Part shown: piece after piece, positions 4,503-42,445 of the stretch
Position numbering within the stretch: the stretch's first letter is position 1
How the letters are laid out: each line of letters opens with the position of its first letter
NCBI GenBank assembly: GCA_041655535.1
Contig: JBBAFH010000003.1
Location: forward strand, 72,910 to 136,909
Length of the DNA: 64,000 nt
Source of the DNA: Bacilli bacterium
GTDB lineage: Bacteria; Bacillota_I; Bacilli_A; RF39; UBA660
Direction of reading: 5' to 3'
Made by a program: the position numbers and the translations under genes
Notes under the pieces: model-generated
What the model saw: the letters and a program-made list of their open reading frames with translations, nothing else
Told to the model about the DNA's origin: nothing
Database searches by the model: none

Positions 4503-4519
4503 TTGAAAGGATGGTTTAA

Positions 4520-4792: not shown

Positions 4793-4814
4793 TTAGCCAG
4801 GGAGGAGGACTAAA

Positions 4815-5150: not shown

Positions 5151-5166
5151 GCAAAGGAGGTAACTG

Positions 5167-6437: not shown

Positions 6438-6447
6438 GGAGGGCATT

Positions 6448-6708: not shown

Positions 6709-6736
6709 TTGGAAACTGATAAAGGAGGATTAATAT

Positions 6737-7105: not shown

Positions 7106-7115
7106 GAGGTAGAAC

Positions 7116-7424: not shown

Positions 7425-7442
7425 TTGGAAGGAGGGTATATA

Positions 7443-7982: not shown

Positions 7983-8001
7983 CTCTAAAAAGGAGGATAT
8001 T

Positions 8002-8187
8002 ATGGCTAAAAAAAGCAAAGTTATACAAGCTAGTAGAAAACCAAAATTTAAAGTACGCGAATATACACGTTGTAAAAAATGTGGAAGACCACATGCTGTT
8101 TTACAAAAATATGGAATTTGCCGTATTTGTTTTAGAGAACTAGCATATAAAGGACAAATACCAGGCGTTAAAAAATCAAGCTGGTAA
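8002..8187 (+). CDS. rpsZ: 30S ribosomal protein S14 type Z (zinc-binding)
   Basis: 61 aa, MAKKSKV...[36 protein letters not shown]. Confidence 0.9.
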
Positions 8188-8205
8188 ATTGAAGGGAGGA
8201 TATTT

Positions 8206-8604
8206 ATGGTAGTTAATGATCCAATTGCAGATATGCTTACAAGAATTCGTAATGCAAATCAAATGCGATATAAAGAAGTTGAAGTACCCGCTTCAAAAAT
8301 AAAGTTAGAAATAGCAAGAATATTAAAAGACGAAGGATTTATAAGTGATTATCAAATCAAAGAAAATAGTATTCAAAATATAATTGTCCTAAATTTAAAA
8401 TATGGACAAAACAAAGAACGTGTAATTACTGGTTTAAAGAGAATATCAAAACCAGGATTAAGAGTTTATGCTAAATCAACAGACTTGCCAAAAGTTTTAA
8501 GTGGTCTAGGAATTGCAATCATCTCAACATCAAGTGGTGTTGTTACTGATAAACAAGCTAGAGAAAAATCTCTTGGTGGCGAAGTATTAGCATATATTTG
8601 GTAG
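8206..8604 (+). CDS. rpsH: 30S ribosomal protein S8
   Basis: 132 aa. Confidence 0.9.
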
Positions 8605-8619
8605 AAAGTAGGAGATTAT

Positions 8620-9153
8620 ATGAGTCGTATTGGAAATAGAATAATAACAATACCAGAAAATGTTACAGTATCAGTTAACGGTAATATTGTAAGTGTTAAA
8701 GGTCCCAAAGGTGAACTTTCTACCGAGATTAATCGCAATATTACAGTTGAAATAAACGGAACTGAGTTAAAGGTTGTTGCTCGTAATGAAAACTTTAAAA
8801 ACTTTCACGGAACAGCAAACGCTAACATTAGTAATATGATTGAAGGAGTAACTACAGGTTTTGAAAAGAAATTAGAAGCAATTGGTGTTGGATATCGTTT
8901 TACAATAAAAGGTAATACACTAGTAGTTGCTGCTGGTTTTTCACACCCAGTAGAGGTGAAAATCACTGAAGGAATTTCGGTTGAAGCACCAAGTAATACT
9001 CAATTAATTATCAAAGGTATTGATAAATGTCTTGTTGGAGAATTTGCAGCAAATATCCGCAAGATTAGAAAACCAGAACCTTACAAAGGAAAAGGAATTC
9101 GTTATAAAGACGAAGTTGTTATCCGTAAAGCTGGTAAAAAAGCTGCTAAGTAA
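8620..9153 (+). CDS. rplF: 50S ribosomal protein L6
   Basis: 177 aa. Confidence 0.9.
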   Translation: MSRIGNRIITIPENVTVSVNGNIVSVKGPKGELSTEINRNITVEINGTELKVVARNENFKNFHGTANANISNMIEGVTTGFEKKLEAIGVGYRFTIKGNTLVVAAGFSHPVEVKITEGISVEAPSNTQLIIKGIDKCLVGEFAANIRKIRKPEPYKGKGIRYKDEVVIRKAGKKAAK

Positions 9154-9177
9154 TCGAAAGTAAAGGAGAGATTTACT

Positions 9178-9540
9178 ATGATAAAAAAAGTATCTCGTAA
9201 TGAAGTACGAAAAGCTAGACATGAGAGAGTTAGAAGTAAAGTAAGTGGAACACATAGTGTGCCAAGACTTAATGTGTTTAGATCGAACAACAATATTTTT
9301 GCACAAATCATTGATGATGAAAATGCTGTAACATTAGTAAGTGCTTCTTCTATTGATAAGGAATTAAAAATTGAAAATGGTGGCAATACAGAAGCTGCTA
9401 TTAAAGTAGGAGAATTACTTGCTAAAAGAGCAAAAGAAGCAAAAATCGTTGAAGTAAAATTTGATAGAGGTGGATACCTATATCATGGACGTGTAAAAGA
9501 ATTAGCTGAAGCAGCACGTCAAAATGGATTAAAATTCTAA
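9178..9540 (+). CDS. rplR: 50S ribosomal protein L18
   Basis: 120 aa. Confidence 0.9.
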
Positions 9541-9552
9541 GGAGGTTAATGA

Positions 9553-10059
9553 ATGGAATACAAAAGAAGAGAACCACGCCCTAAGCAATACGATGAAGAA
9601 GTAATCAACATAAGTCGTGTTACTAAAGTAACAAAAGGTGGTCGTAATTTCCGTTTCTCAGCACTAGTAGTAGTTGGTGATCACAAAGGTCTAGTTGGAC
9701 TAGGCGTTGGTAAAGCTAATGAAGTACCAGATGCTATTAAGAAAGCTGTTCAAGCAGCAACTAAAAACATTATTAAAGTAGCTATTGTTGATGAAAGAAC
9801 AATCCCTCATGAAGCACTTGGAGTTCAAGGAGCTAGTAAAGTATTATTAAAGCCAGCATTAAAAGGTACTGGAGTTAAAGCAGGCGGACCTGTTCGCTCA
9901 GTATTAGAAATGGCTGGAATTAAAGATATTTTGTCTAAATCACTTGGTTCAAGCACTAAAATTAATATGGCACATGCAACCCTTAATGCCTTAAAATCAC
10001 AAAAAACTGTTGAACAAATTGCTGCCCTTCGTGGTAAGAAAGTGGAGGAGATTATATAA
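9553..10059 (+). CDS. rpsE: 30S ribosomal protein S5
   Basis: 168 aa, ...[21 protein letters not shown]... Confidence 0.9.
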
Positions 10060-27499: not shown

Positions 27500-27506
27500 G
27501 TGAAAT

Positions 27507-27842
27507 ATGAGTATTAAAATAAATAGGTTAGCAAACATTCTTGTTCAAGAGATTAGTTATATTTTATCAACAGAAGTGAAAGATAAAAACATAAAATTTG
27601 TAACCGTAACAGATGTTAAATTAACTAATGATTTAAGTTTTGCTAAGGTTTATGTTACAGTTTTAGATGATGATAAAAGAGAAGAGATAATGACGTCTTT
27701 AAATAAAGCAAAAGGTTTTATTAGAAGTCAATTACACGACCGTGTTGACATGAGATATATACCTGAAATTAATTTTATTTATGATGAATCAATTGAATAT
27801 GGAACTAAAATCGAAAATATTATTAATAAACTTAATAACTAA
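27507..27842 (+). CDS. rbfA: ribosome-binding factor A
   Basis: 111 aa, MSIKINRLANILVQEISYIL... Confidence 0.9.
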   Translation: MSIKINRLANILVQEISYILSTEVKDKNIKFVTVTDVKLTNDLSFAKVYVTVLDDDKREEIMTSLNKAKGFIRSQLHDRVDMRYIPEINFIYDESIEYGTKIENIINKLNN

Positions 27843-27871
27843 AAAAACCTGCTCAGCAGGTTTTCTTTTTA
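27841..27871. terminator. bidirectional Rho-independent terminator (rbfA on +, membrane protein gene on -)
   Basis: A7-AACCTGC-tca-GCAGGTT-T-rich. Confidence 0.7.
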
Positions 27872-28540
27872 TTATTTTCGATGCTTGTTACCAATTCGAA
27901 CATTGATCGATTTAATATTTGGGAAAGCTTTGATTAAACGTTTTGTTAATAAAGATTTTGATAATAAAATTTCTTTAACTTTTTCGGTAATCTCTTCTGT
28001 ATAATCCTTTTTTAATACTTCAGCAGTTGTTCTTATTTTCCTAATTACTTTAAATGATATAATAATATCCACAATAAATATAATTCCAATAATGATAGTT
28101 AATATCGTTAATGTATTAACATTTAAGTTGTTAATAAAATTATTAAGTGGCGGATTCAATATATAAATCATAAAAGATCCAAGTAATCCAAAAAATATTA
28201 GGTTTTGCAAACAAATTCTTCCATTAAGATTAAATTTAAGATTCGAATAGTCCCACCATCTAGCGCGGAAAGCCTTTTCCATAATGTAGCTTGTGAAGTA
28301 TTCCACAATAGCAGCAATTAACATAATGATTATAAATAACAAAAAGAAATCTTCTTTATATTCGCTAGCTAATAAAATTATAAAAATAGCCGACAGACCG
28401 TATATTGGACAATATGGTCCAATTAAGAATCCTCGATTGGCAAATTTCTTTTTATCAATACTAACGAAAATTGTTTCTGACACCCATCCTAAAAATGAAT
28501 ATATCATAAATAAAGAATAATAAAATAAAAACCAATTCAT
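27872..28540 (-). CDS. polytopic membrane protein (putative ABC-transporter type IV / DUF1113-like)
   Basis: 222 aa, 6 predicted TM segments. YSFLGWVSETIF motif near the N-terminus. Confidence 0.5.
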   Translation of the reverse strand: MNWFLFYYSLFMIYSFLGWVSETIFVSIDKKKFANRGFLIGPYCPIYGLSAIFIILLASEYKEDFFLLFIIIMLIAAIVEYFTSYIMEKAFRARWWDYSNLKFNLNGRICLQNLIFFGLLGSFMIYILNPPLNNFINNLNVNTLTILTIIIGIIFIVDIIISFKVIRKIRTTAEVLKKDYTEEITEKVKEILLSKSLLTKRLIKAFPNIKSINVRIGNKHRK

Positions 28541-28625
28541 GAAATTCCTCCTGCCATTTATTTTGTCTATATATATTTTACACTTTTTTTAATGACTTGT
28601 CTATTCAAATATATGTGTTATTAAG

Positions 28626-28652
28626 ACAAAAAAGAGAACCGACGGTTCTCTA
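28626..28652 (-). terminator. Rho-independent terminator downstream of the small Cys-rich ORF (minus strand)
   Basis: Palindrome AGAGAACCGaCGGTTCTCT followed, on the minus strand, by a T6 run. Confidence 0.55.
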
Positions 28653-28664
28653 TCATAGGCTCAG

Positions 28665-28832
28665 TTATTTGTCACATTCAGCATATACGTTTATATCAAC
28701 GCAAGTATTGTTATCTTTATCATAGCAATGAGGATGTTCTTTTTCACATTTTACATAAATATTTATAGTTACACAATTATCTTTTTTTTCGGGTCGTTTT
28801 TTAATATCCTTGTCAATTTCTTTTTCTTTCAT
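28665..28832 (-). CDS. small cysteine-rich protein (55 aa), not in the ORF track
   Basis: MKEKEIDKDIKKRPEKKDNCVTINIYVKCEKEHPHCYDKDNNTCVDINVYAECDK. Strong RBS AGGAGGTG 8 nt upstream, and a terminator downstream. Five Cys at a regular 6-8 residue spacing. Confidence 0.5.
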   Translation of the reverse strand: MKEKEIDKDIKKRPEKKDNCVTINIYVKCEKEHPHCYDKDNNTCVDINVYAECDK

Positions 28833-28917
28833 ACATTCTTCACCTCCTAAGATATAATATGCACAACTTTTTTTTCATAAATTGTAAATGTCTTAGGAGA
28901 AAATAAAAATTAAAAGA

Positions 28918-29709
28918 CTAATCATTTTTGACTAGTCTTTTCTCAATATAGTAGACAATATAGTACATAATGGCTGAAACAAGCGAAAGGATAATTACAC
29001 CAGTTATTACTAAGTCTAAATTAAATACTTGAGAACCATACATTATTAAATACCCAATTCCTTTTTTCGATACTAAAAATTCTCCCATTATAATTCCGAT
29101 CAAAGACATACTAACATTTATTTTCAAAGCGCTGATAATGTTATTAAAACTACTTGGTAGAACAAGTTTGAAAAACGTTTGCCCTTTATTCGCACCAAGA
29201 GACTTCATTAATTTTACTTTTACTGGATCGGTTTCATTGAAACCTTGCAACACATTAATAATTGTAACAATTACTGATATAAGTAAAGCCATTACAATAA
29301 TTGAACCTGTTTTGGCCCCAATCCATATAATGATAATTGGTCCGAGTGCTACTTTTGGTAAACTATTTAATATTATAAGATAAGGTTCTAAAATTTTAGA
29401 AATAAATTTATTCCACCATAATGCTGCCGCAATAATTATTCCAATAAGGGTTCCAAGAGTAAAACTAACCACTGTTTCATAAACTGTTGTAAAAATATGT
29501 TGATATAAATCATTTGTTTGATGTAGTGTTATAAGCGTTTCAATAACTTTAGAAGGACTTGAAGAAACAAAAGTGTTAATGATTTTAAAATCAGCAAGTA
29601 ATTGCCAAATTCCAAAAAAAAGTATGGATAAAAGTATTTGAATAAACAGAATAATAATTTTTTCTTGTTTGATTTTTTTTAAGTATTTAATATGCTCTTT
29701 ACTATACAT
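28918..29709 (-). CDS. ABC transporter permease, NitT/TauT (SsuC/TauC-like) family
   Basis: 6 TM segments and a binding-protein-dependent transport EAA-like region. The ATG at 29709 overlaps the stop of the upstream ATPase C-fragment in the form ATGTATAG. Confidence 0.8.
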   Translation of the reverse strand: MYSKEHIKYLKKIKQEKIIILFIQILLSILFFGIWQLLADFKIINTFVSSSPSKVIETLITLHQTNDLYQHIFTTVYETVVSFTLGTLIGIIIAAALWWNKFISKILEPYLIILNSLPKVALGPIIIIWIGAKTGSIIVMALLISVIVTIINVLQGFNETDPVKVKLMKSLGANKGQTFFKLVLPSSFNNIISALKINVSMSLIGIIMGEFLVSKKGIGYLIMYGSQVFNLDLVITGVIILSLVSAIMYYIVYYIEKRLVKND

Positions 29710-29881
29710 GAAAATCAATTTCTTTCCATATTAAATCGTAGTAATACGCAAATTCTTTGGCTTTTCTGTTCTCGATAGGTGATGATTTATCTGTTAATTC
29801 TATATTATAAATACTTTTAATTGTTCCAGGCCTCTTTGTTAAAACAATAATTCGGTCTGCCATGCTTATGGCTTCACTCAT
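29702..29881 (-). pseudogene. C-terminal fragment of the NitT/TauT ABC ATPase gene split by the insertion
   Basis: MSEAISMADRIIVLTKRPGTIKSIYNIELTD...EIDFHV continues the H-loop region (VTHDIS|EAI...) of the ATPase whose N-terminal part is at 41858..42445. The ATG is created at the junction. Confidence 0.7.
29867..29881. repeat. left junction repeat (attL-like) TATGGCTTCACTCAT
   Basis: 13/15 identical to the right-end repeat. Contains the shared core CTTCACT (AGTGAAG on the gene strand). Confidence 0.55.
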
Positions 29882-30027
29882 AGGTACAATTAGTATGATA
29901 ATAAATTAACTTGACACATAAGCTTAATTAGGTGATGTTATGATAAAGTTAACAAAAGAACAACAGGTTAAAATTATTGCTTTTCTATTAAGGACTTCAA
30001 TTTCTAGGATGATTCAAAAGGATAATT

Positions 30028-31503
30028 GTGATAAAGTTGATTAATAATTTCAAAGTGGGTATTTATGTTAGAGTATCGACTGAAGATCAAAAAGAATTTG
30101 GTTATTCTATTCCACAACAAATAGACCTATTATCAAAACTAGCTAACAAAAACAATTGGTATATATATAAAATATATAATGATGCTGGGATAAGTGGAAA
30201 AAATACAGACCGTCCAAAGCTTAAAGAACTATTAGATGATATTAAAAATCAAAAAATAAATAAGGTTTTAATTACTAAGCTTGACAGATTATCAAGAAAT
30301 GTTGTTGATACGGCTACATTGTTAAATGTTTTTAATAGTTTTAATTGTGAGTTAATAGATAGTACAGGAAGAAAAATAGAATCAGATAATCCTAGTGATT
30401 GGTTATTTACTATCATTCAAAGTGCTTTTGGACAATACGAAAGAAAGGCAATTATCAATCGTATTAAAGATGGTTTTGCGGGCAAAGCGAAGATGGGGAA
30501 AACACTATGTAGTTCAACGCCACCATATGGATATAATCGTGAAAAAGGGAGTAATGAATTAATTGAAGACGAAGAGGAATCAACAATTGTAAAACGAATT
30601 TATAATATGTACCTTGATGGAAATACATTTGCAGATATTGCAAAAATACTTAATGCTTCAAAAATATTAACTAAAAAATCAAAAACTGGGAATAAAGTTA
30701 TTAAGTGGACTTCAAAAACAGTAAAGCTTATCTTGTCTAACTCAACTTATATAGGTAAAATTAGATATCATTTAAACAGGGATGATTACCAAGAATATAA
30801 TGGAACTCATATTCCTTTAATTGATATTGCAACATATAAAAAAGTTCAAGAAAAACATAAAAAAACAAGTTTAATATTTCGGACTAATAAACCCAAAGAG
30901 GATGTTTATTTTTGTGGAACCGTTGTGTGTGGGTGTTGCAATACGCTTTTAACAACACAAAGAACTAAAAGAAACAACAAAACATATTATGGCTATAGAT
31001 GTCGTAAACGTGAGTTAGGAACATGTAAAGGAACAAGTATAAGTCATAAAAAAGTTGAAAAGGCCTTTTTTAAATATTTAGAATCTATAAAACAATTTGA
31101 TATGATTGATAGTTTTGATGTTTCTTTTAATAATAATGATAATTTAGAAATTAGTGATTTAACAAAAAATATTAGCAAGTGTAAATCCAAAAAAAAAGAA
31201 ATAATGCAACTATTTATGAACGATAGTATTTCTAATGAGCAAATGAAGTTTATGATAAAAGAAATTACATCAAAAGATAAAATAATGAGTGAAAGGTTAA
31301 AAAAAATAAAAAATATACAAAAAACAAACCAAAACAATTTTGGAGGTATTTCTATTAATATAAGGAAACATTTTGAATTGTTAACTAATTTTGAACGACA
31401 TGAATTTTTAACACAGTTTATTGAATATATTGTCATAAAAAATGATGAAAAGAATAAAATAAATGGTTGCCCAGTGACGTTGAAAATAAAGTTTTATGAT
31501 TGA
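30028..31503 (+). CDS. large serine recombinase (resolvase/invertase catalytic domain + recombinase domain + zinc ribbon + coiled coil)
   Basis: N-terminal VGIYVRVSTEDQ (Ser nucleophile), KLDRLSRN. C-terminal Cys cluster CGTVVCGCCNTLLTTQRTKRNNKTYYGYRCRKRELGTCKG. Lys/Glu-rich coiled-coil tail. The exact start is ambiguous (GTG 30028, TTG 30037 or GTG 30055). Confidence 0.8.
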   Translation: MIKLINNFKVGIYVRVSTEDQKEFGYSIPQQIDLLSKLANKNNWYIYKIYNDAGISGKNTDRPKLKELLDDIKNQKINKVLITKLDRLSRNVVDTATLLNVFNSFNCELIDSTGRKIESDNPSDWLFTIIQSAFGQYERKAIINRIKDGFAGKAKMGKTLCSSTPPYGYNREKGSNELIEDEEESTIVKRIYNMYLDGNTFADIAKILNASKILTKKSKTGNKVIKWTSKTVKLILSNSTYIGKIRYHLNRDDYQEYNGTHIPLIDIATYKKVQEKHKKTSLIFRTNKPKEDVYFCGTVVCGCCNTLLTTQRTKRNNKTYYGYRCRKRELGTCKGTSISHKKVEKAFFKYLESIKQFDMIDSFDVSFNNNDNLEISDLTKNISKCKSKKKEIMQLFMNDSISNEQMKFMIKEITSKDKIMSERLKKIKNIQKTNQNNFGGISINIRKHFELLTNFERHEFLTQFIEYIVIKNDEKNKINGCPVTLKIKFYD

Positions 31504-31610
31504 TAAAAGCCTTTATGAGTCAATGTTATTAAGTTTTAATTTGATGGATTATGTGATATACTATATAAGTAGTAAGATAAATAAACAAACATAGGTGGTG
31601 GTGATTAAAG

Positions 31611-34600
31611 ATGATAAGCGGTAATGAATTTAATAGGATAAGAAAACATTATAATAAATTAATTAAAATGATTAATAATCATTTTTTTGTAGGTATTGTT
31701 AATGAGTGGATAATTGATAATTATTATTTATTAGTTGAACAAAAAGATTCTATCAAAAAGTTTACTAAAGATAAAAAAGCATATAGTTATACTAGTAAAT
31801 ATTTAAATATGTATGATGTTTTTAAAACTATTTTGGAAAAGTATAATTATAAAATAGATGAAAACATTATTATAAAAGAAGTGATTGATTATCAGAAAAC
31901 GACTGGTTATAATTTAAAATATAAAGAACTATCTATTATACCTTTAGTTATCAAAGTTTTGTTGTTAAGAGAAGTATCGATAATTTGTGAAGAAGAATCA
32001 TCAAAATTAAATGATAAAAAAGAAGTAAAAAATATTATTAACAAATTAAAGAAAATGGTTTTAAATAACGAGGAAATAGATTTAGCAAAGTATATAAATT
32101 TAAATAAAATGTCTAGTTATGGTGTTGTTTACTTTAATGAGCAATTTAAAGAGTTGGGAGAATATTCTAATGTAGTTTTCAAACAATTTAATAGTTTGTT
32201 AGAAAACAACAATAAAGTAATGATTGATATTATAAACAAGGAACATTTAAAGAGTACCGAGTCTAACATAATTATTAATAATATATTTTTAAGTTTTAAA
32301 GAAACTAACATTTTTGTTATGGAAAATATTTACGAAAAAGTTAATGATGTCGAGAAGTTACTTCAAGAAGATAAATTATATTCTAAAATGACTCTTGAAA
32401 CAAAAACTTTAATTCGTCAACATTTACTTAAACGCGCAAGACAAGACAAAGTTACTGCCGATACTTTAGTAAAAGATATTTTAGATGATTATAATAATAT
32501 TAGTGATGGACTTTTAAAAAAGAAGGATTATGGTTTTCTGAAGGTTATATTTTATCTAGTAATTGTATTTGCAATAACCGCTATTTTAAGCTATTATTTA
32601 TCAGTTTTTTTAACCAGTTATAGGTTATTAGGTTTTTTAGCACTTCTGATTCCAATTAGCGAAATAGTAAATATTGTTGTTCAAAATATGTTTTTAAGAC
32701 TATTTAGAACAAAACCATTGGCAAAACTAGATTTTTCAAAAGGAATACCATCTAATCATAAAACGATGGTTGTTATTCCAACTATTGTTAAAACTGAAGA
32801 AAAAATTAAACAAGTTTTTACTAGCTTAGAAAAGTATTATTTAATCAATAAAACAAGTAATTTATATTTCACTTTATTAAGTGATGCTTTTGAAAATAAT
32901 GAAGAAAATCACCAAAATGATTCTACTATTATTTCTTCTGGTGTGGCTGAAGCCGAAAGATTAAACAAAATATATGGTAAAAATATTTTTCATTTTGTCT
33001 ATCGCCGTCGTATATATAATAAAGGTGAAGGGACATGGCTAGGTTTTGAACGGAAAAGAGGGGCATTGCTTCATTTTAATGACTTGCTATTAGGTAATAT
33101 GAATGAAGAAGAACAAAAAAAATATTTTAAAGTTCATACTTTCCATAATTTTCATCATAAGATTAAATATGTAATTACTTTAGACGTAGATACTGAATTG
33201 GTTTTAAATAGTGCTTTAAAACTAGCTGGAACCATGGCACATCCTTTAAATAGACCCATTTTAAACGAATCAAAGACCAAGGTTATTGCTGGATACGGTA
33301 TATTACAACCTAGAATTAGTTTAGAAGTTGAAGCTAGCAATAAATCATTGTTTTCACAAATATATGCAGGAATTGGGGGCTTTGATCCATACAGTAATCT
33401 TTACCCTAACTTTTATCAAGATGTTTTTAAAGAAGGAACTTTTTATGGAAAAGGAATATATGACTTAAAGGTTTATCAACAAGTCTTAAAAAAACGTTTC
33501 CCAAACAATTTGATATTAAGTCATGATTTAGTTGAAGGAAATTATCTTCGTGCCGGGAATGTTACTGATATTGATTTAATTGATGGTTTTCCATCTAAAT
33601 TTTTAGTAGATGCTTCTAGACGCTCAAGATGGGCGAGAGGAGATATGCAAGTAATTAGTTGGATTGGAAATAAAGTTAGAAATGAATCTGGAATCAAAGA
33701 AAAAAATCCAATTAGTTTATTAGGTAAGTGGAAAATCATTGATAACATCAGACGCGGATTGATTAATGTATTTTTATTAATAATCCTTTTTCTAGCACTT
33801 AATAGTAATATTGTGAATCCCAACTGGTGGTTATTGTTTGTTATTTTAATATATATTTTACCAATCATTATTCAAGTTATCGAAAATTTTGTGATTAGTC
33901 GTTCTAGTTTTAGTTCCTTGAAATATTATCGCATATTAGTATTTGGTTATAGAGCACTTATTCTAAGAGCGATAACTGAACTATCAATAATTCCTTACAA
34001 TGCTTACTTATATTTAAACTCTTTTGTTCGTTCAATATATCGAATGACTATTAGTAAGAAGCATTTACTTAATTGGGTTACAGCTGATGACGCTGCTAAA
34101 TTAGTTAAAACTAATTTAGGTAATACAATTAAACAATTTTGGATCAACACTTTTTTAGCAATCATTTTAATTGTTTGGGCTTTATATTCTAAAGAACATC
34201 AATTATTAAAACTTGTTCTATCATTTATTTTTATGCTAGGTCCTGTTATTACCTATTTAATTAGTAAAGATTTAGCACACGATAAAAATAAAATTGAAAA
34301 AGATGGTATTGAAACATTAAATAATTTAGCTAAGAGTACTTGGAGTTACTTTAGTGACAATTTAACTGAAGAAAACAATTATTTAATTCCTGATAATTAT
34401 CAAGAAAATAGAGATATAAAACCAGATATTAAAACGTCACCAACTAACATTGGACTTTCGTTAGTATCGGTTATTTCAGCATGCGAATTAAAATTAATAA
34501 ATACTGATGAAGCACTTCATTTGCTCGAAAAAATAATTACATCTATTAAAAAATTAGATAAGTGGCATGGTCATCTATATAATTGGTATGATATTAAAAC

Positions 34601-37600
34601 TTTAAAAGTTATGTATCCTCATTTTATTTCGAGTGTTGATAGCGGCAACTTTGTTGCTTCTTTAATGGTGGCCAAAGGATTTGTTGAAAAATATAATCGA
34701 CTAGAATTACTGAAAATGATTGAAAGATTAATAAATAAAACAGAATTTCAGTATTTATATACAGACACTGATGTATTTAGTGTTGGATATCATGTTGACC
34801 AAGGTCGATTAGAACCATTTAATTATAATAAATTTATGAGCGAAAGCCGCATTTTAAGTTATTTAGCAATCGCTAAAGGTGACGTTCCTAGTAAGCATTG
34901 GTTTGGTCTTGATAAAACGTTAATAGCTTATAAAAATAAAAAAGGTTTATCATCATGGTCTGGTACTTTCTTTGAATATTATATGCCACTTCTATTTATG
35001 CCAAGTTATGCTAATACGATAATTGATGAGGCTTATCATTTTGCATACTATGTTCAAAGTGATTATATGAAAAAGTATAACAAAAATTATCCGTGGGGAA
35101 TTTCAGAATCCGCTTATAATGATCTAGATGATGCTCAAAACTATAAATATAAAGCATTTGGTATTCCACAGTTAAGGCTTCGGGAGGAAGCAAGTGAAAG
35201 AGTTGTTATATCTCCATATAGTTCCCTTCTAGCCTTACCTCTATTTCCAAAAGAAGTTATTAAAAATATTGAAAAATTTAAACCACTTAATATGTTTGGT
35301 AAATATGGATTATATGAATCATATGATTGTTTAGATGAATCACCAGTTGTATCATATTACGCCCATCATCAAGCAATGATTTTAGGAAGTCTTACAAACT
35401 TTTTAACAGATGGTGTTATTCAATCATATTTTTACAAAGATATTCGTAATCAAGCTGTTGATATGTTAATAAAAGAAAAGGTTCAATTAAGACCACACAT
35501 TAATTATGAGACAATGAGGTATAAGAAATATACATATGAGAAAGAATCTTTTGTTAATGATATTAGAGTTTATAATCAAATATCAAAACTACCTGAGTTG
35601 TCGGTTTTATCAAATTCAAAGTATAGTGTTATTATTAATGATCGAGGGAATGGATATAGTAAATATTATCAAATTAGATTAAATAGATATCGTAAGGTTA
35701 CTGAAAGGGATTATGGACAATTTTTATATATTAAAGATTTACAAACTAAAAAGGTTTGGTCAAACACATATGCCCCAATTAATGTAAAACCGAAAAAATA
35801 TGAAATAGTATATGCTTTAGATAATATAAAATTTGTTAGAGCAGATAAAGATGTTATTACTACTACTGAAATAGTGGTGACAAAATCACACAATGCTGAA
35901 ATAAGAAGAATCACTTTTAAAAATAATGGAAACAAAGATAAAGAGTTGGAATTAACAACTTATACAGAACCTATTTTAGGTCTTAATTCTGATGATATTG
36001 GTCATCCAGTATTTAACAATATGTTTGTCTATAGTGAATACGACAAAAAAACCAATTCTATTATTATGAAAAGGAAATTAAGAAATTCTGATACAAATTA
36101 TTACATGATAAGCCGATTATTTATAGAAGATCCAATTGGTTCCTTTGAGTATGAAACAAATCGTGATAATTTTATCGGTAGAGGTCGTAATACTAATAAT
36201 CCAAAATCAATTCATGAAAAACTTCGTAACTATGTTGGAACTACACTTGATCCAATCATTAGTTTAAGAAATAAAATTTTAGTACCTAAAAATAGTGAAA
36301 AAACAGTTTATTTAATCACTGGTTTTGGAAGATCACGAGAACATGTTTTAAACATTGTTAGAACCTATTGTAATAAACAAGTTATCAATGAAAAAGGGTT
36401 TGAAACGGCTATTATTATGAGTAATGCAAGCAATAAAATGGTTAATATGAGTAGCGATGACCGTCGTTTATATAATACAATGCTTAATTATCTATTACAG
36501 ACAAATTATATTGTTGTAAGCGACGAAATATTTGATAATTTAACTAAAAACACGTTAAATCAAACAAATTTATGGGGCTTTGGAATTTCTGGTGACAGAC
36601 CAATAATATTATTAGACTTAAAAGATTTAAGTGATTTGAGTTTGGTTAAAGAATTATTGCATGCTTTTGAATATTACAAAAGCAAAGCAATTTTCATTGA
36701 TTTGGTTATAATTAATAGTGAAAACGAACAATACGCTAAAGTTATAGCAAAAGAAATAGAAAACGAAAAATATCATATGTATGCTATTAATAACTTCTTC
36801 AATACGCCTGGTTCAATTTTTGTTTTAGATAGAAACAAAATTAGTGAAGAGGATTATATTTTATTAAAAACGGTTGCTAGACTAAAAATTGATAGTAATC
36901 TTCATAATTCACTGCAATACTATATTAATGAACTTCAAAAATTAAACACAGTGAAAACTAAGCATAATGAAAATGAAGTTCCAAGTTTACCGATTAAGTA
37001 TGACAAAAACAAAATAAAATTCTTTAATGAATTTGGTGGTTTTATTAATAATGGTAAAGAATATTTAATAGTTGACCCAAATACTCCTTCAGCTTGGAGT
37101 AATGTCATTTCTAATAAAAACTTTGGAACAGTTATTACTAATAATAACTGTGGGTTCACTTATGCCGTAAACAGTAGAGAGTACAAATTAACGTCTTGGA
37201 CTAATGATGCTTTAGTTAATGATTATTCAGAAGGGTTTAAAATTAATGATATGAAAATCAATTTCAGTCATGTTAAATTTGGATTCGGTTATAGTGAGTA
37301 TATAGGAAACTTTAAACGAGTCGATCTTAATTTAATTCAATTTGTAGCAAAGGAAGATAACGTTAAATTTTATAAGATGAAACTAAAAAACAATTCTGCT
37401 CGTAAACAAAGAATTATTTTGAAGTTTTGGATAAACCCTAATCTTGGGTTTACTGAAGAAAAAACAGGACGTTATTTACTAAGTGAATTTAATGAAAAGA
37501 ATAATTATTTAAGTATCAGAAATGTTTATAGTCAAAAGTTTAATCATTTATATGCATATATGTCTAGTACTGAAAAAATAAACAACGCTATACTCAATAA

Positions 37601-39275
37601 TTTGTTAGTTAAAGAAATTGAAGTTGATTTCTATCTAGATGAAAAGGAAGAAAAAGAATTGGTCTTTACTTTAGGTAGTTCCACTAAAGATAATTTAGAT
37701 ACACTTGTCACGAAATATAATGATATTGCAAAAGTTAATGAAGAATTATCTAATATCAAAAATCATTGGGACGATATATTAACTACTGTTCAAATAAAAA
37801 CACCTGATGAAAGTTTTGATTATATATTAAATGGTTGGGCTTTATATCAAAGTATTGCTTCTAGATTACAAGCACGTGCAGGATTTTATCAAGTTGGTGG
37901 TGCATATGGATTTCGTGATCAATTACAAGATTCAATGAATGTATGCAGTATTGATCCTAGTATTACAAGGAATCAAATATTATTTAATGCTGCTCACCAA
38001 TTTAAAGAAGGAGATGTTCTTCATTGGTGGCACCCTAAATTAGATATTGGCTTGCGTTCATTATATAAGGATGATTATTTGTGGTTAATCTACGCAATTA
38101 GTGAGTATCTAAAAATTACTGAAGATTTTAGTATTTTAGATGAACAAGTACCATTTATTACAGGATTCGCACTTGAACCACACGAACATGAAAAGCTAAT
38201 TAATTACAAAGTTGGCGAAGAAACGTCTAGTATTTATGATCGTTGTATATTAATAATAAATAAAGCAATGAATGAACTAGGTCAAAATGGTTTACCCCTT
38301 ATGGGTGGTGGTGACTGGAACGATGGGATGAATAAGATAGGTATTGAAGGAAAAGGAACCAGTGTTTGGCTAGGATTTTTCTTGTACCAATTAATTAATG
38401 AATTCATGGCATTTGTTGATAAATATGATGCTAATATTGATTTAAGCATTTATAATGATTTTAACAAAGAACTAAAAGAATCTTTAAGAAATGTTGCGTG
38501 GGATGGTAAGTATTATTTAAGAGCTTTCTTTGATAATGGTCAACCAGTAGGATCAAATACTAATGAAGAATGCACAATAGATTTATTATCACAAAGTTTC
38601 GCCATATTATCTGGTGTAGCCGATTCTAAACAAATTGATACAATGATTGAGTCAGTAGAAACTAAGTTAGTTGATAATGATTTAAAAATTATTAAACTTT
38701 TGACACCAGCATTCTCTAAAAACAAAAATAATCCAGGATATATTATGGATTATCCTAAAGGAATTAGAGAAAATGGTGGTCAATATACTCATGCTGTCGC
38801 TTGGTACATTCAAGCCCTACTAAAAATAGGAAAGAATGATTTAGCATTCGATCACTATCAAATGATGAATCCAATTAATCGCACTAAAACTAAGGAAGAT
38901 GCATTGAAATATAAAGTTGAACCATATGTTTTTGTAGCGGATATCTATAGTAACGAAAATTTTGCTGGTCAAGGTGGATGGAGTTGGTATACCGGAACTA
39001 GTGGTTGGTTTTACAATGTCGCCCTTACAGATATTATTGGATTTAATTTAAGAGGTGACAAATTATATGTCACTCCTAATGTTCCGATTAAATGGAATGA
39101 CTTTGAAATAACTTATCGTTATCAAGACACGGTTTATAAAATAAAAGTTATGCTAAAAGAACCTAAAGACGAGATTATAATTGATAATAAAGTTACCTAT
39201 TATAATTATATAGAGTTAATAAATGATAAGAAAATACACACAGTTTTAGTAAAGAAAGGAGAGCAAAATGATTAA
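31611..39275 (+). CDS. giant multidomain glucan synthase, cyclic beta-1,2-glucan synthase (Cgs/NdvB/ChvB)-like: N-terminal region + GT-A glycosyltransferase + TM segments + C-terminal GH94-type phosphorylase domain
   Basis: 2554 aa. GT-A signatures ITLDVDTE (DxD) and RRSRWARGD (QxxRW-like), with multiple TM helices on either side. C-terminal region carries GGAYGFRDQLQDSMN, GGGDWNDGMN and WSWYTGTSGW, typical of GH94 (cellobiose/chitobiose phosphorylase-like) catalytic domains. RBS GGTGGTGGTGA. Confidence 0.7.
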   Translation: MISGNEFNRIRKHYNKLIKMINNHFFVGIVNEWIIDNYYLLVEQKDSIKKFTKDKKAYSYTSKYLNMYDVFKTILEKYNYKIDENIIIKEVIDYQKTTGYNLKYKELSIIPLVIKVLLLREVSIICEEESSKLNDKKEVKNIINKLKKMVLNNEEIDLAKYINLNKMSSYGVVYFNEQFKELGEYSNVVFKQFNSLLENNNKVMIDIINKEHLKSTESNIIINNIFLSFKETNIFVMENIYEKVNDVEKLLQEDKLYSKMTLETKTLIRQHLLKRARQDKVTADTLVKDILDDYNNISDGLLKKKDYGFLKVIFYLVIVFAITAILSYYLSVFLTSYRLLGFLALLIPISEIVNIVVQNMFLRLFRTKPLAKLDFSKGIPSNHKTMVVIPTIVKTEEKIKQVFTSLEKYYLINKTSNLYFTLLSDAFENNEENHQNDSTIISSGVAEAERLNKIYGKNIFHFVYRRRIYNKGEGTWLGFERKRGALLHFNDLLLGNMNEEEQKKYFKVHTFHNFHHKIKYVITLDVDTELVLNSALKLAGTMAHPLNRPILNESKTKVIAGYGILQPRISLEVEASNKSLFSQIYAGIGGFDPYSNLYPNFYQDVFKEGTFYGKGIYDLKVYQQVLKKRFPNNLILSHDLVEGNYLRAGNVTDIDLIDGFPSKFLVDASRRSRWARGDMQVISWIGNKVRNESGIKEKNPISLLGKWKIIDNIRRGLINVFLLIILFLALNSNIVNPNWWLLFVILIYILPIIIQVIENFVISRSSFSSLKYYRILVFGYRALILRAITELSIIPYNAYLYLNSFVRSIYRMTISKKHLLNWVTADDAAKLVKTNLGNTIKQFWINTFLAIILIVWALYSKEHQLLKLVLSFIFMLGPVITYLISKDLAHDKNKIEKDGIETLNNLAKSTWSYFSDNLTEENNYLIPDNYQENRDIKPDIKTSPTNIGLSLVSVISACELKLINTDEALHLLEKIITSIKKLDKWHGHLYNWYDIKTLKVMYPHFISSVDSGNFVASLMVAKGFVEKYNRLELLKMIERLINKTEFQYLYTDTDVFSVGYHVDQGRLEPFNYNKFMSESRILSYLAIAKGDVPSKHWFGLDKTLIAYKNKKGLSSWSGTFFEYYMPLLFMPSYANTIIDEAYHFAYYVQSDYMKKYNKNYPWGISESAYNDLDDAQNYKYKAFGIPQLRLREEASERVVISPYSSLLALPLFPKEVIKNIEKFKPLNMFGKYGLYESYDCLDESPVVSYYAHHQAMILGSLTNFLTDGVIQSYFYKDIRNQAVDMLIKEKVQLRPHINYETMRYKKYTYEKESFVNDIRVYNQISKLPELSVLSNSKYSVIINDRGNGYSKYYQIRLNRYRKVTERDYGQFLYIKDLQTKKVWSNTYAPINVKPKKYEIVYALDNIKFVRADKDVITTTEIVVTKSHNAEIRRITFKNNGNKDKELELTTYTEPILGLNSDDIGHPVFNNMFVYSEYDKKTNSIIMKRKLRNSDTNYYMISRLFIEDPIGSFEYETNRDNFIGRGRNTNNPKSIHEKLRNYVGTTLDPIISLRNKILVPKNSEKTVYLITGFGRSREHVLNIVRTYCNKQVINEKGFETAIIMSNASNKMVNMSSDDRRLYNTMLNYLLQTNYIVVSDEIFDNLTKNTLNQTNLWGFGISGDRPIILLDLKDLSDLSLVKELLHAFEYYKSKAIFIDLVIINSENEQYAKVIAKEIENEKYHMYAINNFFNTPGSIFVLDRNKISEEDYILLKTVARLKIDSNLHNSLQYYINELQKLNTVKTKHNENEVPSLPIKYDKNKIKFFNEFGGFINNGKEYLIVDPNTPSAWSNVISNKNFGTVITNNNCGFTYAVNSREYKLTSWTNDALVNDYSEGFKINDMKINFSHVKFGFGYSEYIGNFKRVDLNLIQFVAKEDNVKFYKMKLKNNSARKQRIILKFWINPNLGFTEEKTGRYLLSEFNEKNNYLSIRNVYSQKFNHLYAYMSSTEKINNAILNNLLVKEIEVDFYLDEKEEKELVFTLGSSTKDNLDTLVTKYNDIAKVNEELSNIKNHWDDILTTVQIKTPDESFDYILNGWALYQSIASRLQARAGFYQVGGAYGFRDQLQDSMNVCSIDPSITRNQILFNAAHQFKEGDVLHWWHPKLDIGLRSLYKDDYLWLIYAISEYLKITEDFSILDEQVPFITGFALEPHEHEKLINYKVGEETSSIYDRCILIINKAMNELGQNGLPLMGGGDWNDGMNKIGIEGKGTSVWLGFFLYQLINEFMAFVDKYDANIDLSIYNDFNKELKESLRNVAWDGKYYLRAFFDNGQPVGSNTNEECTIDLLSQSFAILSGVADSKQIDTMIESVETKLVDNDLKIIKLLTPAFSKNKNNPGYIMDYPKGIRENGGQYTHAVAWYIQALLKIGKNDLAFDHYQMMNPINRTKTKEDALKYKVEPYVFVADIYSNENFAGQGGWSWYTGTSGWFYNVALTDIIGFNLRGDKLYVTPNVPIKWNDFEITYRYQDTVYKIKVMLKEPKDEIIIDNKVTYYNYIELINDKKIHTVLVKKGEQND

Positions 39276-40470
39276 ATTTGATTTTAACACTTATATGAAA
39301 TCATTTGATAGAGTTGGAAATTATCAGTCTAAAATAAATAAAATAATTAATTTATTAGAAACAGGAACATCGATGAATGATTGGTATGATATAGACAAAT
39401 GTATTACGCCAGGAGTTTTAGAAGATATTTTAGAAACAAGTAAATATATTCGTAATAATTGTGATGTTTTTATTGTTATTGGAGTGGGTGGATCATCATT
39501 AGGTGCAAAAGCTGTTGTTGATGCATTCAAACCTTATTTCAAAAAAAGCAATCCCGAAATAATCTTTTTGGGATCATCACTATCATCAGTTTATTTAAAA
39601 GAATTGTTAAAATATATTGAAGGTAAAGAGGTAATTATTAATGTGATTTCTAAATCCGGGACGACTTTTGAAACAAATCTATATTTTGAATATATCTACA
39701 AGGAACTTAATAAAAGATATGTTGAAGACGAGCTTAATAAAAGAATAATTATAACAACTGATGCAAAAGAAGGAAGTCTTAGACAATTAGTTAATCAAAA
39801 AAATTACAAATCTTTTGTTTTACCAAGTAATATTGGTGGGAGATATTCAGTTATGACAGTTGTTGGTCTTTTACCAATAGCGGTTTCAGGTATAGATATA
39901 AATGAAATGATTCTTGGTGCCAAAGCATTAGATAAACAGAAATCTTTTGATTATGCTGTCAGCAGGGATCTTTTATACAAATACGGAAAAAAAGTGGAAT
40001 CACTTACTATTTATGAACCAAAACTATTATCATTAGTTGAAAGTATCAAACAAGTACTTGCTGAAACCCAAGGAAAAGAAGGTAAAGCTATTTTGCCAAT
40101 TGCTTCGATTAATACTGGAGATCTGCACTCTTTGGGGCAGTTTTATCAAGAAGGCAGTCAAATATTATTTGAAACAGTTATTAACGTTGAATATAATAAC
40201 GATATCGTTATATCTAAATATAATAAAAAATTAGATGATATAAACAAAATAGTTGCTAGTCAAGTAGCGACTTCTCATATGAAAAATGATGTTTATAGTA
40301 ATTTTATATCACTTGATGCATTAACTCCTTTTAATATAGGTCAACTAATTTATTTCTTTGAAATAGCCGCAGCAGCAGGTGCATACCTACTTGAAGTGGA
40401 ACCATTTGGTCAACCTGGTGTAAGTGAATATAAAAAATTAGTTGCAAGGGAACTTGATAATAATGAGTAA
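39268..40470 (+). CDS. pgi: glucose-6-phosphate isomerase (short, Bacillus/archaeal-type PGI)
   Basis: 400 aa, ...VIGVGGSSLGAKAV..., ...ISKSGTTFET..., GGRYSVMTVVGLLP. Start overlaps the giant gene's stop by 8 nt. Confidence 0.8.
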   Translation: MIKFDFNTYMKSFDRVGNYQSKINKIINLLETGTSMNDWYDIDKCITPGVLEDILETSKYIRNNCDVFIVIGVGGSSLGAKAVVDAFKPYFKKSNPEIIFLGSSLSSVYLKELLKYIEGKEVIINVISKSGTTFETNLYFEYIYKELNKRYVEDELNKRIIITTDAKEGSLRQLVNQKNYKSFVLPSNIGGRYSVMTVVGLLPIAVSGIDINEMILGAKALDKQKSFDYAVSRDLLYKYGKKVESLTIYEPKLLSLVESIKQVLAETQGKEGKAILPIASINTGDLHSLGQFYQEGSQILFETVINVEYNNDIVISKYNKKLDDINKIVASQVATSHMKNDVYSNFISLDALTPFNIGQLIYFFEIAAAAGAYLLEVEPFGQPGVSEYKKLVARELDNNE

Positions 40471-41830
40471 AATAAATCCATTAATTTTTAGAGCTTATGA
40501 TATTAGAGGTATCTATCCGATTGATATTAACGAAGAAATGGCTTTTATAATAGGTTGCAGTTTTGGAACTTATATTACTAGTATTGGTAAAACAGAAGCT
40601 TTAGTTGGATACGATAACCGTTTATCTTCTCCTTCTTTAAGGGATTCGTTAATTAAAGGAATTACTAGTACCGGAATCAACGTTATCGATCTAGGGCTTA
40701 TTACAACACCGATGTTTTATTATGCTAGAACATATTTAAATGTTTGGTCTGGAATAATGATTACAGCAAGCCATAATCCAAGTGATCATAATGGATTTAA
40801 ATTATCTTTTACCGAAATTGGAAATGCTCTTGGAGAAGAAATTACCGATTTTTATAATTTTACGATCAAGGGAGAATTTATAGATGGAAATGGTACTATA
40901 AATCATTACAATATTAAAAACGACTATATAGAACTTATTAAAAATTCCCTTGATTTGGGAGGTAAAAAAATCAAAGTGGTTGTTGATTGTGGGAACGGAA
41001 CTACATCAGTTGTCATAAAAGATATTCTTGATTCATTACCAATTGTTTATGAGTTGATGTATGCAGAAAGCGATCCAACTTTTCCAAATCATCATCCTGA
41101 TCCATCAGTGCCAGAAAACTTAATTGATCTTCAAAAACGAGTAGTTGAGTTAAATTGCGATTTAGGACTTGCTCTAGATGCTGATGGAGACCGTATTGGA
41201 CTTGTCGATAATTTAGGCAATGTTATTGATAGTGATTTATATATGATTATAATGTATCGTTATTTAAGTAAAAATATGAAAAATAAGACGGCGCTTTATG
41301 ACGTAAAATGTTCAAAATCATTGATTAATGAAATAGATAAACTTGGTTTAAAACATATTATGAATCGTACTGGTAATTCATATGTATACAGAAGACTTCA
41401 TCAAGAAAATATTGAATTTGGTGGAGAATATTCTGGACATATCTTCTTTAAAGATAAATTTCCAGGATTTGATGATGGTATTTATGCTGGTCTTAGAATG
41501 GTTGAAGTATTGTCAACAACTGGTAAAATGATAAGTGAATTATCAGAAGGGATTAATAAATATTATTCGACTGATGAAATAAAAGTAACAGTTGCTGATG
41601 AAAAAAAATTCAAGGTAATAGAAAAGATAAAAGAAATATTGAAAAATAAAAAAATACCATTTAAAGATATTGATGGTGTAAGAGTTGAAACGAATGACTT
41701 TTGGGTGTTAGTAAGAGCTTCAAATACAACGCCTAACTTAACAGTTAGATTTGAGGCTAATAGTGAAAAGTTACTTGAAAAAATAAAAGATGAATATTTT
41801 GAACTAATTAATAAAGTAATAAAAGGATAA
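40463..41830 (+). CDS. phosphoglucomutase/phosphomannomutase (alpha-D-phosphohexomutase family)
   Basis: MSKINPLIFRAYDIRG..., active-site TASHNP, metal loop DADGDR, GEYSGH. The ATG at 40463 overlaps the pgi stop in the form ATGAGTAA. Confidence 0.8.
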   Translation: MSKINPLIFRAYDIRGIYPIDINEEMAFIIGCSFGTYITSIGKTEALVGYDNRLSSPSLRDSLIKGITSTGINVIDLGLITTPMFYYARTYLNVWSGIMITASHNPSDHNGFKLSFTEIGNALGEEITDFYNFTIKGEFIDGNGTINHYNIKNDYIELIKNSLDLGGKKIKVVVDCGNGTTSVVIKDILDSLPIVYELMYAESDPTFPNHHPDPSVPENLIDLQKRVVELNCDLGLALDADGDRIGLVDNLGNVIDSDLYMIIMYRYLSKNMKNKTALYDVKCSKSLINEIDKLGLKHIMNRTGNSYVYRRLHQENIEFGGEYSGHIFFKDKFPGFDDGIYAGLRMVEVLSTTGKMISELSEGINKYYSTDEIKVTVADEKKFKVIEKIKEILKNKKIPFKDIDGVRVETNDFWVLVRASNTTPNLTVRFEANSEKLLEKIKDEYFELINKVIKG

Positions 41831-41857
41831 TATAATTATCTTTTTTTTTATACTTAT

Positions 41858-42445
41858 TTAGTATATGCCTTCACTTATATCATGGGTGACCATTATGACA
41901 CTTTTTTTTTCTTTTTTGATAATTTTATAAACATCATCTGATACTGCTAACCTCGTTTGATAATCAAGTGCTGAAAAAGGTTCATCTAACAAAAGAATAT
42001 CTGGTTTCGTGGCCAGCGTTCTAATTAGAGCCGCTCTTTGTCGCATCCCCCCGGATAAACTACTAGGATAATTATCCACAAAATCACCGAGGCCATAAGT
42101 ATTTAGTAACTTTATTACGTAATCAGTATTTTCTTTTGTTAATTCATTTTTGATTTCTAAACCAATTAAACAGTTATTTAAAATTGTTCGCCAATTAAAC
42201 AAATTATCTTGTTGTAGCATGTACCCAATTGTAGAATTTTCATTAAAATTAACTGTTCCTTCTGATATTTTTTCTAAACCACATAAAATTGATAGAATAG
42301 TCGACTTTCCGCATCCACTTGGGCCAACAATGGCCACAAACTCCCCTTCATACAAATTAAAAGAAAAGTTATCAACAGCTAATATTTCACCTTGTTTAGT
42401 ATGATAAATTTTCTTTAAGTTTTCAATATTTAATATTTTATTCAT
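41858..42445 (-). pseudogene. N-terminal fragment (195 aa) of the NitT/TauT-type ABC transporter ATP-binding protein, truncated by the insertion
   Basis: Walker A GPSGCGKST, signature LSGGMRQR, Walker B LLLDEPFSALD, H-loop VTHDIS, then an abrupt ...EGIY stop at the element boundary. The remainder is found at 29702..29881. Confidence 0.75.
41864..41878. repeat. right junction repeat (attR-like) TATGCCTTCACTTAT
   Basis: Direct repeat of the 29867-29881 sequence. Lies immediately adjacent to the truncated ATPase N-fragment stop. Confidence 0.55.

Follow-up and report, generated by a model that had tools for sequence, protein, structure and literature searches.

The gene at 28832..28665 and its transcription unit

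The window analyzed here, a 64-kb stretch of contig JBBAFH010000003.1 from a Bacilli bacterium (assembly GCA_041655535.1, positions 72,910 to 136,909), is occupied mostly by ribosomal and housekeeping genes. On its minus strand, between the permease gene of a NitT/TauT-type ATP-binding cassette (ABC) transporter and a gene for a CmpB/COG4905-type membrane protein (PF06541, E 4e-53), lies a 55-codon open reading frame (ORF), 28832..28665, that ends in a TAA stop codon at 28667..28665. A preliminary description of this locus had proposed that the frame encodes a Cys-rich micro-protein with its own ribosome binding site (RBS) and terminator. The frame is present with an identical translation, and we found the near-perfect RBS, AGGAGGTG, at 28848..28841 (minus strand, like all elements of this gene), followed by a spacer of 8 nt and then the ATG. 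The palindrome and run of six Ts that had been reported downstream form an intrinsic terminator (28651..28628) with an 8-bp GC-containing stem and a 3-nt loop, AGAGAACC-GTC-GGTTCTCT (28651..28633), running into a T6 tract at 28633..28628. The hairpin folds at −10.8 kcal/mol (z −2.35) and was among four terminator-like sites returned by a scan of a 2.7-kb region in which 0.6 would be expected. The coding-strand base in its loop is T, the lowercase "a" given previously being the plus-strand reading.

Upstream of the RBS we recognized two further elements, a −10 element, CATATTATA, of the form CATAnnnTA (28861..28853, beginning 29 nt 5′ of the ATG) and a conserved upstream box, TAAGACATTTACAATTTAT (28895..28877), which spans the −35 region and sequence further upstream. 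The promoter thus runs to about position 28895, beyond the range of 28626..28850 that had been assigned to the gene.

The encoded protein contains 11 Lys, 7 Asp, and 6 Glu residues, and its Cys residues fall at positions 20, 29, 36, 44, and 53 (with 8, 6, 7, and 8 residues between them), which bears out the earlier remark on five regularly spaced Cys residues in a Lys/Asp-rich background. Of the N-terminal 19 residues, MKEKEIDKDIKKRPEKKDN, 13 are charged and none belongs to a hydrophobic run, and this segment is probably disordered. Reading the sequence directly, we saw no signal peptide with a hydrophobic h-region, so the suggestion that the peptide might be secreted is unlikely to hold for the Sec route. 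The window protein has no Pfam or NCBIfam match at E ≤ 1, and its orthologue in a public metagenome-assembled genome (MAG) is annotated as a hypothetical protein (PHI05_01630).

By word-indexed search, we found two relatives of 55 aa among 5.8 billion proteins, one 88% and the other 76% identical, and we placed close relatives on four contigs, one of which, 60 kb long and syntenic, belongs to a MAG also named "Bacilli bacterium" (GCA_028706395.1; locus L001). Codon-level comparison of the window gene with three close relatives gave 0.62 to 1.09 synonymous substitutions per site (dS) and 0.06 to 0.11 nonsynonymous substitutions per site (dN), a dN/dS ratio of 0.08 to 0.14; third codon positions held 14 to 18 of the 20 to 27 differences, and frame and length were kept with no indels or frame disruption. 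Five further pairs within the wider family described below gave ratios of 0.05 to 0.17. The preliminary description had named loss of the reading frame in close relatives as the result that would speak against a gene; what we see is its conservation, together with a dN/dS of ~0.1 and a third-position bias. The 55-codon ORF is therefore a real gene under purifying selection, and we are close to certain that it is a genuine, conserved, and autonomous protein-coding gene. So short a frame, overlapped by antisense ORFs of 40 to 42 aa, might be imagined to have arisen by chance in AT-rich DNA or to reflect a structured or regulatory RNA, but the substitution pattern refutes this reading, protein homologues extend down to 35 to 45% identity with synonymous sites saturated, and an Rfam scan of 27500..30200 gave only subthreshold matches, on the rbfA terminator, with none over the ORF, leaving it next to no probability.

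The gene had also been suggested to be cotranscribed with, and perhaps functionally linked to, the transporter genes upstream. A hairpin with a U-rich tail overlies the stop codon of the ABC permease gene (28941..28912, minus strand), outside the micro-gene unit; it has 13 bp and folds at −14.6 kcal/mol (z −4.8; 0 of 200 shuffled sequences folded as well), and the transporter transcript is likely to end there. Aligning four sequences showed hardly any variation in the 55 nt that precede the RBS, and in the related MAG (L001) this sequence is kept even though three genes on the opposite strand lie between the permease gene and the micro-gene. Because of this hairpin and the retention of the upstream sequence despite the intervening genes, cotranscription with the transporter is unlikely. 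The terminator stem is likewise invariant among the relatives, its loop varying (GTC, AAT, TTT, or ATT), and the downstream CmpB-like gene has a conserved promoter of its own, TAGACA-17-TAAAAT, located 3′ of the micro-gene terminator. The micro-gene is thus a stand-alone, monocistronic unit with its own promoter and terminator.

The three intervening genes of L001 (4235..5775, minus strand), which only the related MAG has, encode proteins of 143, 196, and 175 aa with signal-peptide-like N termini; the last of these carries the zinc-metalloprotease motif HEFGHALGL.

A family of small proteins with a Cys-bounded repeat

To find more distant members, we ran a three-sequence profile exhaustively against 1.84 billion cluster representatives. 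The nine matches contributed six additional small proteins of 54 to 111 aa; one match, P0007, a 3,578-aa adhesin with Ig/cadherin repeats, was rejected as a false positive. Iterated profile searches of the 5.8-billion-sequence index gave 16 and 15 clusters, and a metagenome scan gave 20 loci, so that profile searches and metagenome scan add up to a family of about 25 clusters, 54 to 111 aa in length. A scan of contigs of the GTDB species representatives returned only the MAG that was already known. The hosts are uncultured low-GC Bacilli MAGs and Clostridia. One clostridial member, P0021, is listed by NCBI under "Ruminococcus sp." and has dockerin-bearing proteins among its neighbors, and a related 58-aa variant, MKDKNESCVELNIYVECDKCSKSEPIVSCPDDKHDDNESCVKINVFVECDDKKHRYTV, is identical in 12 independent metagenome contigs (L033 to L044), several of them labeled human gut and some exceeding 100 kb. 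The sequence MKDKNESCVELNIYVECDKC... is encoded in this Ruminococcus-type human-gut clade, and the spread of the 58-aa variant points to a prevalent gut species as a possible subject for work on the family. Sporulation is documented for Ruminococcus bromii, a human-gut species that has dockerin-bearing proteins and to which the gut clade need not belong (PMC5814915).

Every member has two or three copies of one Cys-bounded unit, for which 57 units from 27 proteins gave the consensus [ED]-[STN]-C-V-x-[ILV]-N-[VI]-[YF]-[VTA]-[EK]-C-[DE]-K or, with the position before [EK] less strictly given, the 12-residue form C-V-x-[ILV]-N-[VI]-[YF]-x-[EK]-C-[DE]-K. The window protein aligns with all members, falls within their length range, and has two such units, C20-VTINIYVK-C29 and C44-VDINVYAE-C53, joined by the linker EKEHPHCYDKDNNT. 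The attention that had been drawn to its Cys residues was well placed: they are the most conserved feature of the family, the four that bound the repeats (four of the five in the window protein) being invariant together with the Asn at the center of each repeat. Val is likewise invariant after the first Cys and is found after the third in at least 90% of members, while C36 and the HPH motif of the window protein sit in the variable linker. At the gene level, an (A/G)GGAGGTG-like RBS is kept in essentially all members, and each one examined has its own hairpin and T run; the window gene shares the full arrangement of a monocistronic unit with a GGAGGTG-type RBS, its own hairpin terminator, and a CATAnnnT sequence 20 to 45 nt upstream.

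The peptide and eight to ten distant homologues, scanned against Pfam, NCBIfam, and PHROGs, gave nothing meaningful, a profile search of the PDB gave no match at E ≤ 10, and no precomputed Pfam domain is recorded for any member. Judged against Pfam, NCBIfam, PHROGs, and the PDB, the family is previously undescribed.

We modeled two members with AlphaFold2. The window protein, with an alignment of 10 sequences, gave a mean confidence (pLDDT) of 60 and no secondary structure, and a three-repeat member, with 18 sequences, gave a pLDDT of 50 and three strands, each repeat forming one β-strand with disordered linkers; confidence is low in both. Aliphatic residues alternate with others in V-x-I-N-I-Y-V, as suits an amphipathic strand. 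Model and pattern suggest that each unit is one amphipathic β-strand with a Cys cap at either end, and that the Lys/Asp/Glu-rich linkers between units are probably disordered. The two invariant Cys residues of a unit, 9 residues apart at the ends of this hydrophobic strand, would by geometric estimate be separated by ~30 Å if it were extended. Because they would lie at opposite ends of the strand, they could not share one metal site in a monomer, and they would be better placed to staple neighboring strands together. The proposal of a small metal-binding or disulfide-rich peptide therefore divides, the disulfide-rich half being the more plausible and the metal-binding half disfavored by the placement of the Cys residues.

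Promoter, genomic contexts, and possible functions

When the upstream regions of distant members were compared, a CATAnnnT(A) box ~24 to 41 nt before the start codon proved to be common to them. We counted CATAnnnT at positions −45 to −20, using as controls all other ORFs of ≥80 aa in the same loci, and found it in 11 of 16 lineages against 15 of 239 control ORFs (6.3%; binomial P ~2e-10), although the lineages are homologous and not independent samples, so that this P value and the one that follows are optimistic. The sigma-K-type arrangement AC-N16/17-CATAnnnT was present in four of the first 11 lineages (L018, L020, L022, and L026; Poisson-binomial P 1.6e-4) and also in L033 and L048, six lineages in all, and GTAGCA stood at the same spacing in four more. 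The motif persists in genomes of 25 to 48% GC with fully diverged spacer sequence, and the −10 element is invariant in the window and in five other loci (L001, L003, L004, L006, and L015). The CATAnnnTA consensus applied here draws in part on Bacillus subtilis. A CATA-type −10 element is shared by sigma-E and sigma-K (PMC3789822; see also PMC517825 for the sigma-K/sigma-E consensus). These sequence features suggest that the promoter is read by a mother-cell sigma factor, at the family level most likely sigma-K, and for the window gene possibly sigma-E or sigma-K.

The low-GC members (the window, L001, L003, L006, L009, L015, and L021) share in addition, at fixed spacing, the upstream box of 18 to 19 nt, RRGRCNTTTAYWRTTTAW, which is separated from the −10 element by ~14 nt of variable, unconserved spacer and reaches too far 5′ to be a −35 hexamer alone. 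Compared by eye with sites for sigma-E (kmATAww), sigma-F, sigma-G, sigma-H, and GerE, it gave no convincing fit. In L020 the sigma-K-like promoter lies ~70 to 90 nt upstream (~130..190), and the 5′ leader holds a long perfect inverted repeat, AGGTATTAGAAAC...GTTTTCTAATACCT, just 5′ of the RBS, which could form a regulatory or stabilizing hairpin.

Two members lie among genes connected with spores. The gene for P0017, which belongs to a low-GC lineage (L009) with the same upstream box as the window gene, directly follows two A_ENA genes (PF26595) and is near genes for a YheCD-type ATP-grasp protein and an amidase. A-ENA is a recently described α-helical "sporesilk" endospore appendage (ENA), a fiber of the spore matrix (PMC13111695). 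The gene for P0018 (L018) is directly upstream of a YabP-family gene (yqfC; E 6e-15) and yqfD (E 2e-94). The L009 neighborhood as a whole (1..9738) comprises the two A-ENA genes (96 and 126 aa; PF26595 calls that rest on precomputed annotation), the YheCD-type ATP-grasp gene, an Amidase_2 gene, and a gene for a weakly transglutaminase-core-like protein (E 2e-4), and it looks like a spore-surface island.

Apart from the transporter beside the window gene, the contexts differ from lineage to lineage and include FeoAB/DtxR, ZIP, an M54-like peptidase, MatE/MarR, asnS, tyrS, valS, and prfA. We found no partner gene conserved across them: CmpB-like, FeoAB/DtxR, ZIP, A-ENA, YqfC/D, tyrS, valS, and prfA genes are each confined to one clade. 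Whether homologues are always found beside an NMT1/SsuABC-like transporter had been put forward as a check; such a transporter occurs in none of ~15 other family contexts, and a functional tie of the micro-gene to the transporter is thus unsupported. The divergent upstream neighbor of the member in L011 (2184..2927) encodes a Reprolysin_5/M54-like peptidase. In three lineages (L006, 6854..7087; L015, 3277..3510; and L021, 2056..2280), a conserved and almost entirely hydrophobic protein of 74 to 77 aa, with Cys at both termini (MNQCxNRF..LLFYLGFLLLGSL..NKTCF..C), is encoded on the same strand immediately 5′ of the gene for the family member. Pfam gave no significant match for this protein, which neither the window nor L001 encodes and which could act as a partner or anchor of the family member.

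The promoter motif, the two spore-gene neighborhoods, and a tiny K/D/E/Y/C-rich protein without a signal peptide point to a spore coat or surface protein that is expressed in the mother cell, built of β-strand repeats, and cross-linked through Cys, a reading that we regard as about evenly poised between right and wrong. Were it correct, the window organism would presumably sporulate, and transcription from the CATAnnnT promoter by a mother-cell sigma factor, combined with the strong RBS, would produce the protein in a late burst during sporulation. Because it has no signal peptide, the protein would stay in the mother-cell cytoplasm and be added to the developing spore as part of its coat, crust, or exosporium, where the Asn- and Tyr-containing strands could stack among themselves or against other coat proteins. 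The terminal Cys residues would then lock the assembly by intra- or intermolecular disulfides once the spore met oxidizing conditions.

Among known systems, CotC (66 aa) and CotU (86 aa) of B. subtilis are tiny outer-coat proteins, dominated by Lys, Asp, and Tyr and without a signal peptide, whose monocistronic genes are expressed late in the mother cell (sigma-K with GerE) and whose products are assembled and cross-linked on the spore surface; they are Tyr-rich and thought to cross-link via tyrosines. The present proteins are analogous to them in size, in the prominence of Lys, Asp, and Tyr, in lacking a signal peptide, and in their monocistronic genes, but CotC and CotU have no detectable sequence similarity to the Cys-bounded β-strand repeat and no CVxINVYxxC unit. 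The arrays formed by ExsY/CotY, CdeC, and CsxA are stabilized by disulfides. ExsY/CotY/CotZ of Bacillus, CdeC/CdeM of Clostridioides difficile, and CsxA of Clostridium sporogenes/botulinum are Cys-rich proteins made in the mother cell that self-assemble into very stable arrays (PMC5434927, PMC8546674, PMC7677010, PMC7333573). Our family shares with ExsY/CotY, CdeC, and CsxA a richness in Cys and an occurrence in strict anaerobes: the organism of the window is a walled anaerobe, since the window encodes desulfoferrodoxin, a LysM protein, and a PASTA-deacetylase. Those proteins are globular, of 150 to 400 aa, and form two-dimensional crystalline lattices, whereas ours have 54 to 111 aa, short strand repeats, and charged linkers, and none of the Pfam models for ExsY/CotY/CotZ, CdeC/CdeM, or CsxA matched the micro-protein. 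The resemblance to CotC/CotU and to the Cys-rich spore proteins would accordingly be one of function, by analogy, and not of homology.

ENAs are also spore-surface polymers that become covalent after assembly, S-ENA through a Cys-Cys motif in the N-terminal connector (PMC12357932) and A-ENA through isopeptide bonds (PMC13111695). One family member stands directly 3′ of two A-ENA genes, as described above, but that adjacency is found in one lineage only, and there is no homology between our family and the ENA proteins (S/L-ENA Ena1/Ena3, F-ENA, and A-ENA), which are folded domains of at least 100 to 130 aa (DUF3992, DUF4183, or an α-hairpin). The ENA core domains (DUF3992, DUF4183, and PF26595) are absent from the recorded Pfam domains of family members, and tblastn with the L009 A-ENA protein revealed no ENA-like gene in the window.

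The repeat core, V-x-I-N-[VI]-Y-V-K, with its alternation of aliphatic residues with Asn and Tyr, also resembles strands that stack in cross-β ladders, such as the VQIVYK and VQIINK steric zippers of tau and those of the curli protein CsgA, which has several strand repeats per molecule; the Cys caps and highly charged linkers are foreign to both of those systems. It is conceivable, if improbable, that the family represents a novel class of minimal spore-surface "staple" or fiber subunit, a disulfide-locked functional amyloid of the coat or exosporium in which each molecule would contribute two or three Asn/Tyr-ladder strands to a cross-β stack, with the 74- to 77-aa membrane protein as an anchor where it is present. 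Such an amyloid family would range from uncultured low-GC Bacilli to abundant Ruminococcus-type Clostridia of the human gut.

The proteins belong to no described family and are not obviously a new kind of system; if they do act at the spore surface, they would be a new sequence family among small cross-linkable spore-surface proteins. Micro-proteins of ~55 aa are underannotated, and the family founded on this one lacks a counterpart in Pfam, NCBIfam, or the PDB yet is under clear purifying selection, in lineages that are hard to cultivate and that include a human-gut variant. Should the mother-cell promoter signature be true, the Cys-capped β-strand repeat would add a new and very simple architecture to the small, poorly conserved spore-surface proteins of anaerobes and could provide a compact marker of sporulation capacity in MAGs, and the short, self-contained repeat would be an easy object for in vitro tests of self-assembly and redox-controlled cross-linking. 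Should it be false, the protein would be one more conserved hypothetical micro-protein.

Several observations weigh against a spore-surface role, in addition to the optimistic P values and the low-confidence models. Pfam scans of 30 other proteins of the 64-kb window revealed no sporulation gene, and spore-related contexts account for only 2 of ~17. Of the two halves of the motif, the window gene shows the −10 half alone, with neither AC nor ATA at the canonical −35 spacing; ATTTA(T/A) stands at the AC position there and in L001, L003, L006, and L015. CATATTAT, in a genome of 27% GC, also contains the sigma-A-like hexamer TATTAT, and plain TATAAT boxes occur in L009 and L019. The sigma-A-like hexamer, the TATAAT boxes, and the lack of a sporulation gene in the window speak for a small protein made from a housekeeping (sigma-A) or other nonsporulation promoter with a role unrelated to spores, for example, a stress-induced aggregation-prone or structural peptide, a component of the biofilm matrix, or a regulator acting by binding to a partner protein. 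The −10 region of the window gene would then be read as TATTAT with ATTTAT 16 nt upstream, and the 74- to 77-aa membrane protein, the nearest same-strand neighbor in three lineages, could be a vegetative partner. Sigma-A has no need, however, of the C of CATA, which lies immediately 5′ of the sigma-A-like hexamer and is kept across genomes of 25 to 48% GC, and such a promoter leaves the sigma-K-type AC at the right spacing in six lineages and the two spore-gene neighborhoods out of account. We consider this alternative doubtful, though it survives better than any other.

A cytoplasmic metal-binding or redox protein, metallothionein-like or acting as a metal chaperone or buffer in vegetative cells or under metal or oxidative stress, would use the Cys residues and the linker His residues (HPH) as ligands. 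Five Cys and two His in 55 aa would suit it, and so would the extra Cys present in many linkers. A DtxR-type repressor and FeoAB adjoin the members in L006 and L015, a ZIP transporter is near the L009 member, and MsrAB and a thioredoxin-like protein are near the L018 member, but these metal-gene neighbors are not conserved across lineages. Apart from the spacing of the invariant Cys residues, which would offer no tetrahedral site per molecule, the window protein lacks knuckles of the CxC or CxxC type, the His and Cys residues of the linker are unconserved (HPH becomes RPR or NPY in close relatives), there is no match to metallothionein or any other Pfam or NCBIfam model, and the promoter motif is left unexplained. 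This role is unlikely.

Still less probable, to the point that we give it little credence, is a precursor of a ribosomally synthesized and posttranslationally modified peptide (RiPP) or a bacteriocin, with the charged N terminus as leader and the Cys repeats as core of a sactipeptide, ranthipeptide, or lanthipeptide. The small size, the charged N-terminal segment, the Cys-rich C-terminal part, and the repeated core-like units recall such precursors, and the CmpB/COG4905 protein encoded immediately downstream belongs to a family linked to drug transport. The CmpB literature shows the drug-transport association only, with no link to peptides, and the CmpB-like gene, which has its own promoter after the micro-gene terminator, is a neighbor in the window clade alone. 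In ~17 contexts we found no conserved radical-SAM, LanM/LanB/LanC, YcaO, peptidase-ABC exporter, or immunity gene nearby; no NCBIfam precursor model matched, there is no double-Gly or similar cleavage motif, and the supposed leader is the least conserved part of the protein, almost absent in P0010, P0009, and P0020. As far as is known, six-Cys-in-forty-five (SCIFF) genes always adjoin a radical-SAM maturase and match a dedicated NCBIfam model. Our family is like SCIFF and other Cys-rich Clostridia RiPP precursors in size (theirs being ~45 to 60 aa), in having several Cys residues in the C-terminal half, and in its distribution in Firmicutes, and it differs from them in having no NCBIfam match and no maturase nearby in any context.

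Other features of the window

The gene for an SsuB/TauB-like ABC ATPase is split by a 12-kb element (insert ~29882..41857) into halves at 42445..41858 and 29881..29702 (minus strand). The two halves share a 7-nt core, AGTGAAG, and joining them there restores ...VTHDISE/AISMADRIIVL... (the slash marks the junction), an intact H-loop region. The cargo of the insert comprises a large serine recombinase (30028..31503, plus strand), a 2,554-aa GH94/glycoamylase protein, a PGI-like gene, and a phosphoglucomutase. The related MAG (L001/L005) carries this recombinase, the GH94 gene, and the remnant of the ATPase as well, and the insertion is therefore old. We read the insert either as stably integrated or as a skin-like intervening element that is excised during development.

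Elsewhere in the window, 56710..57813 (plus strand) encodes a 367-aa protein with an ALK/LTK glycine-rich domain (PF12810, E 5e-48), whose name comes from animal receptor kinases.

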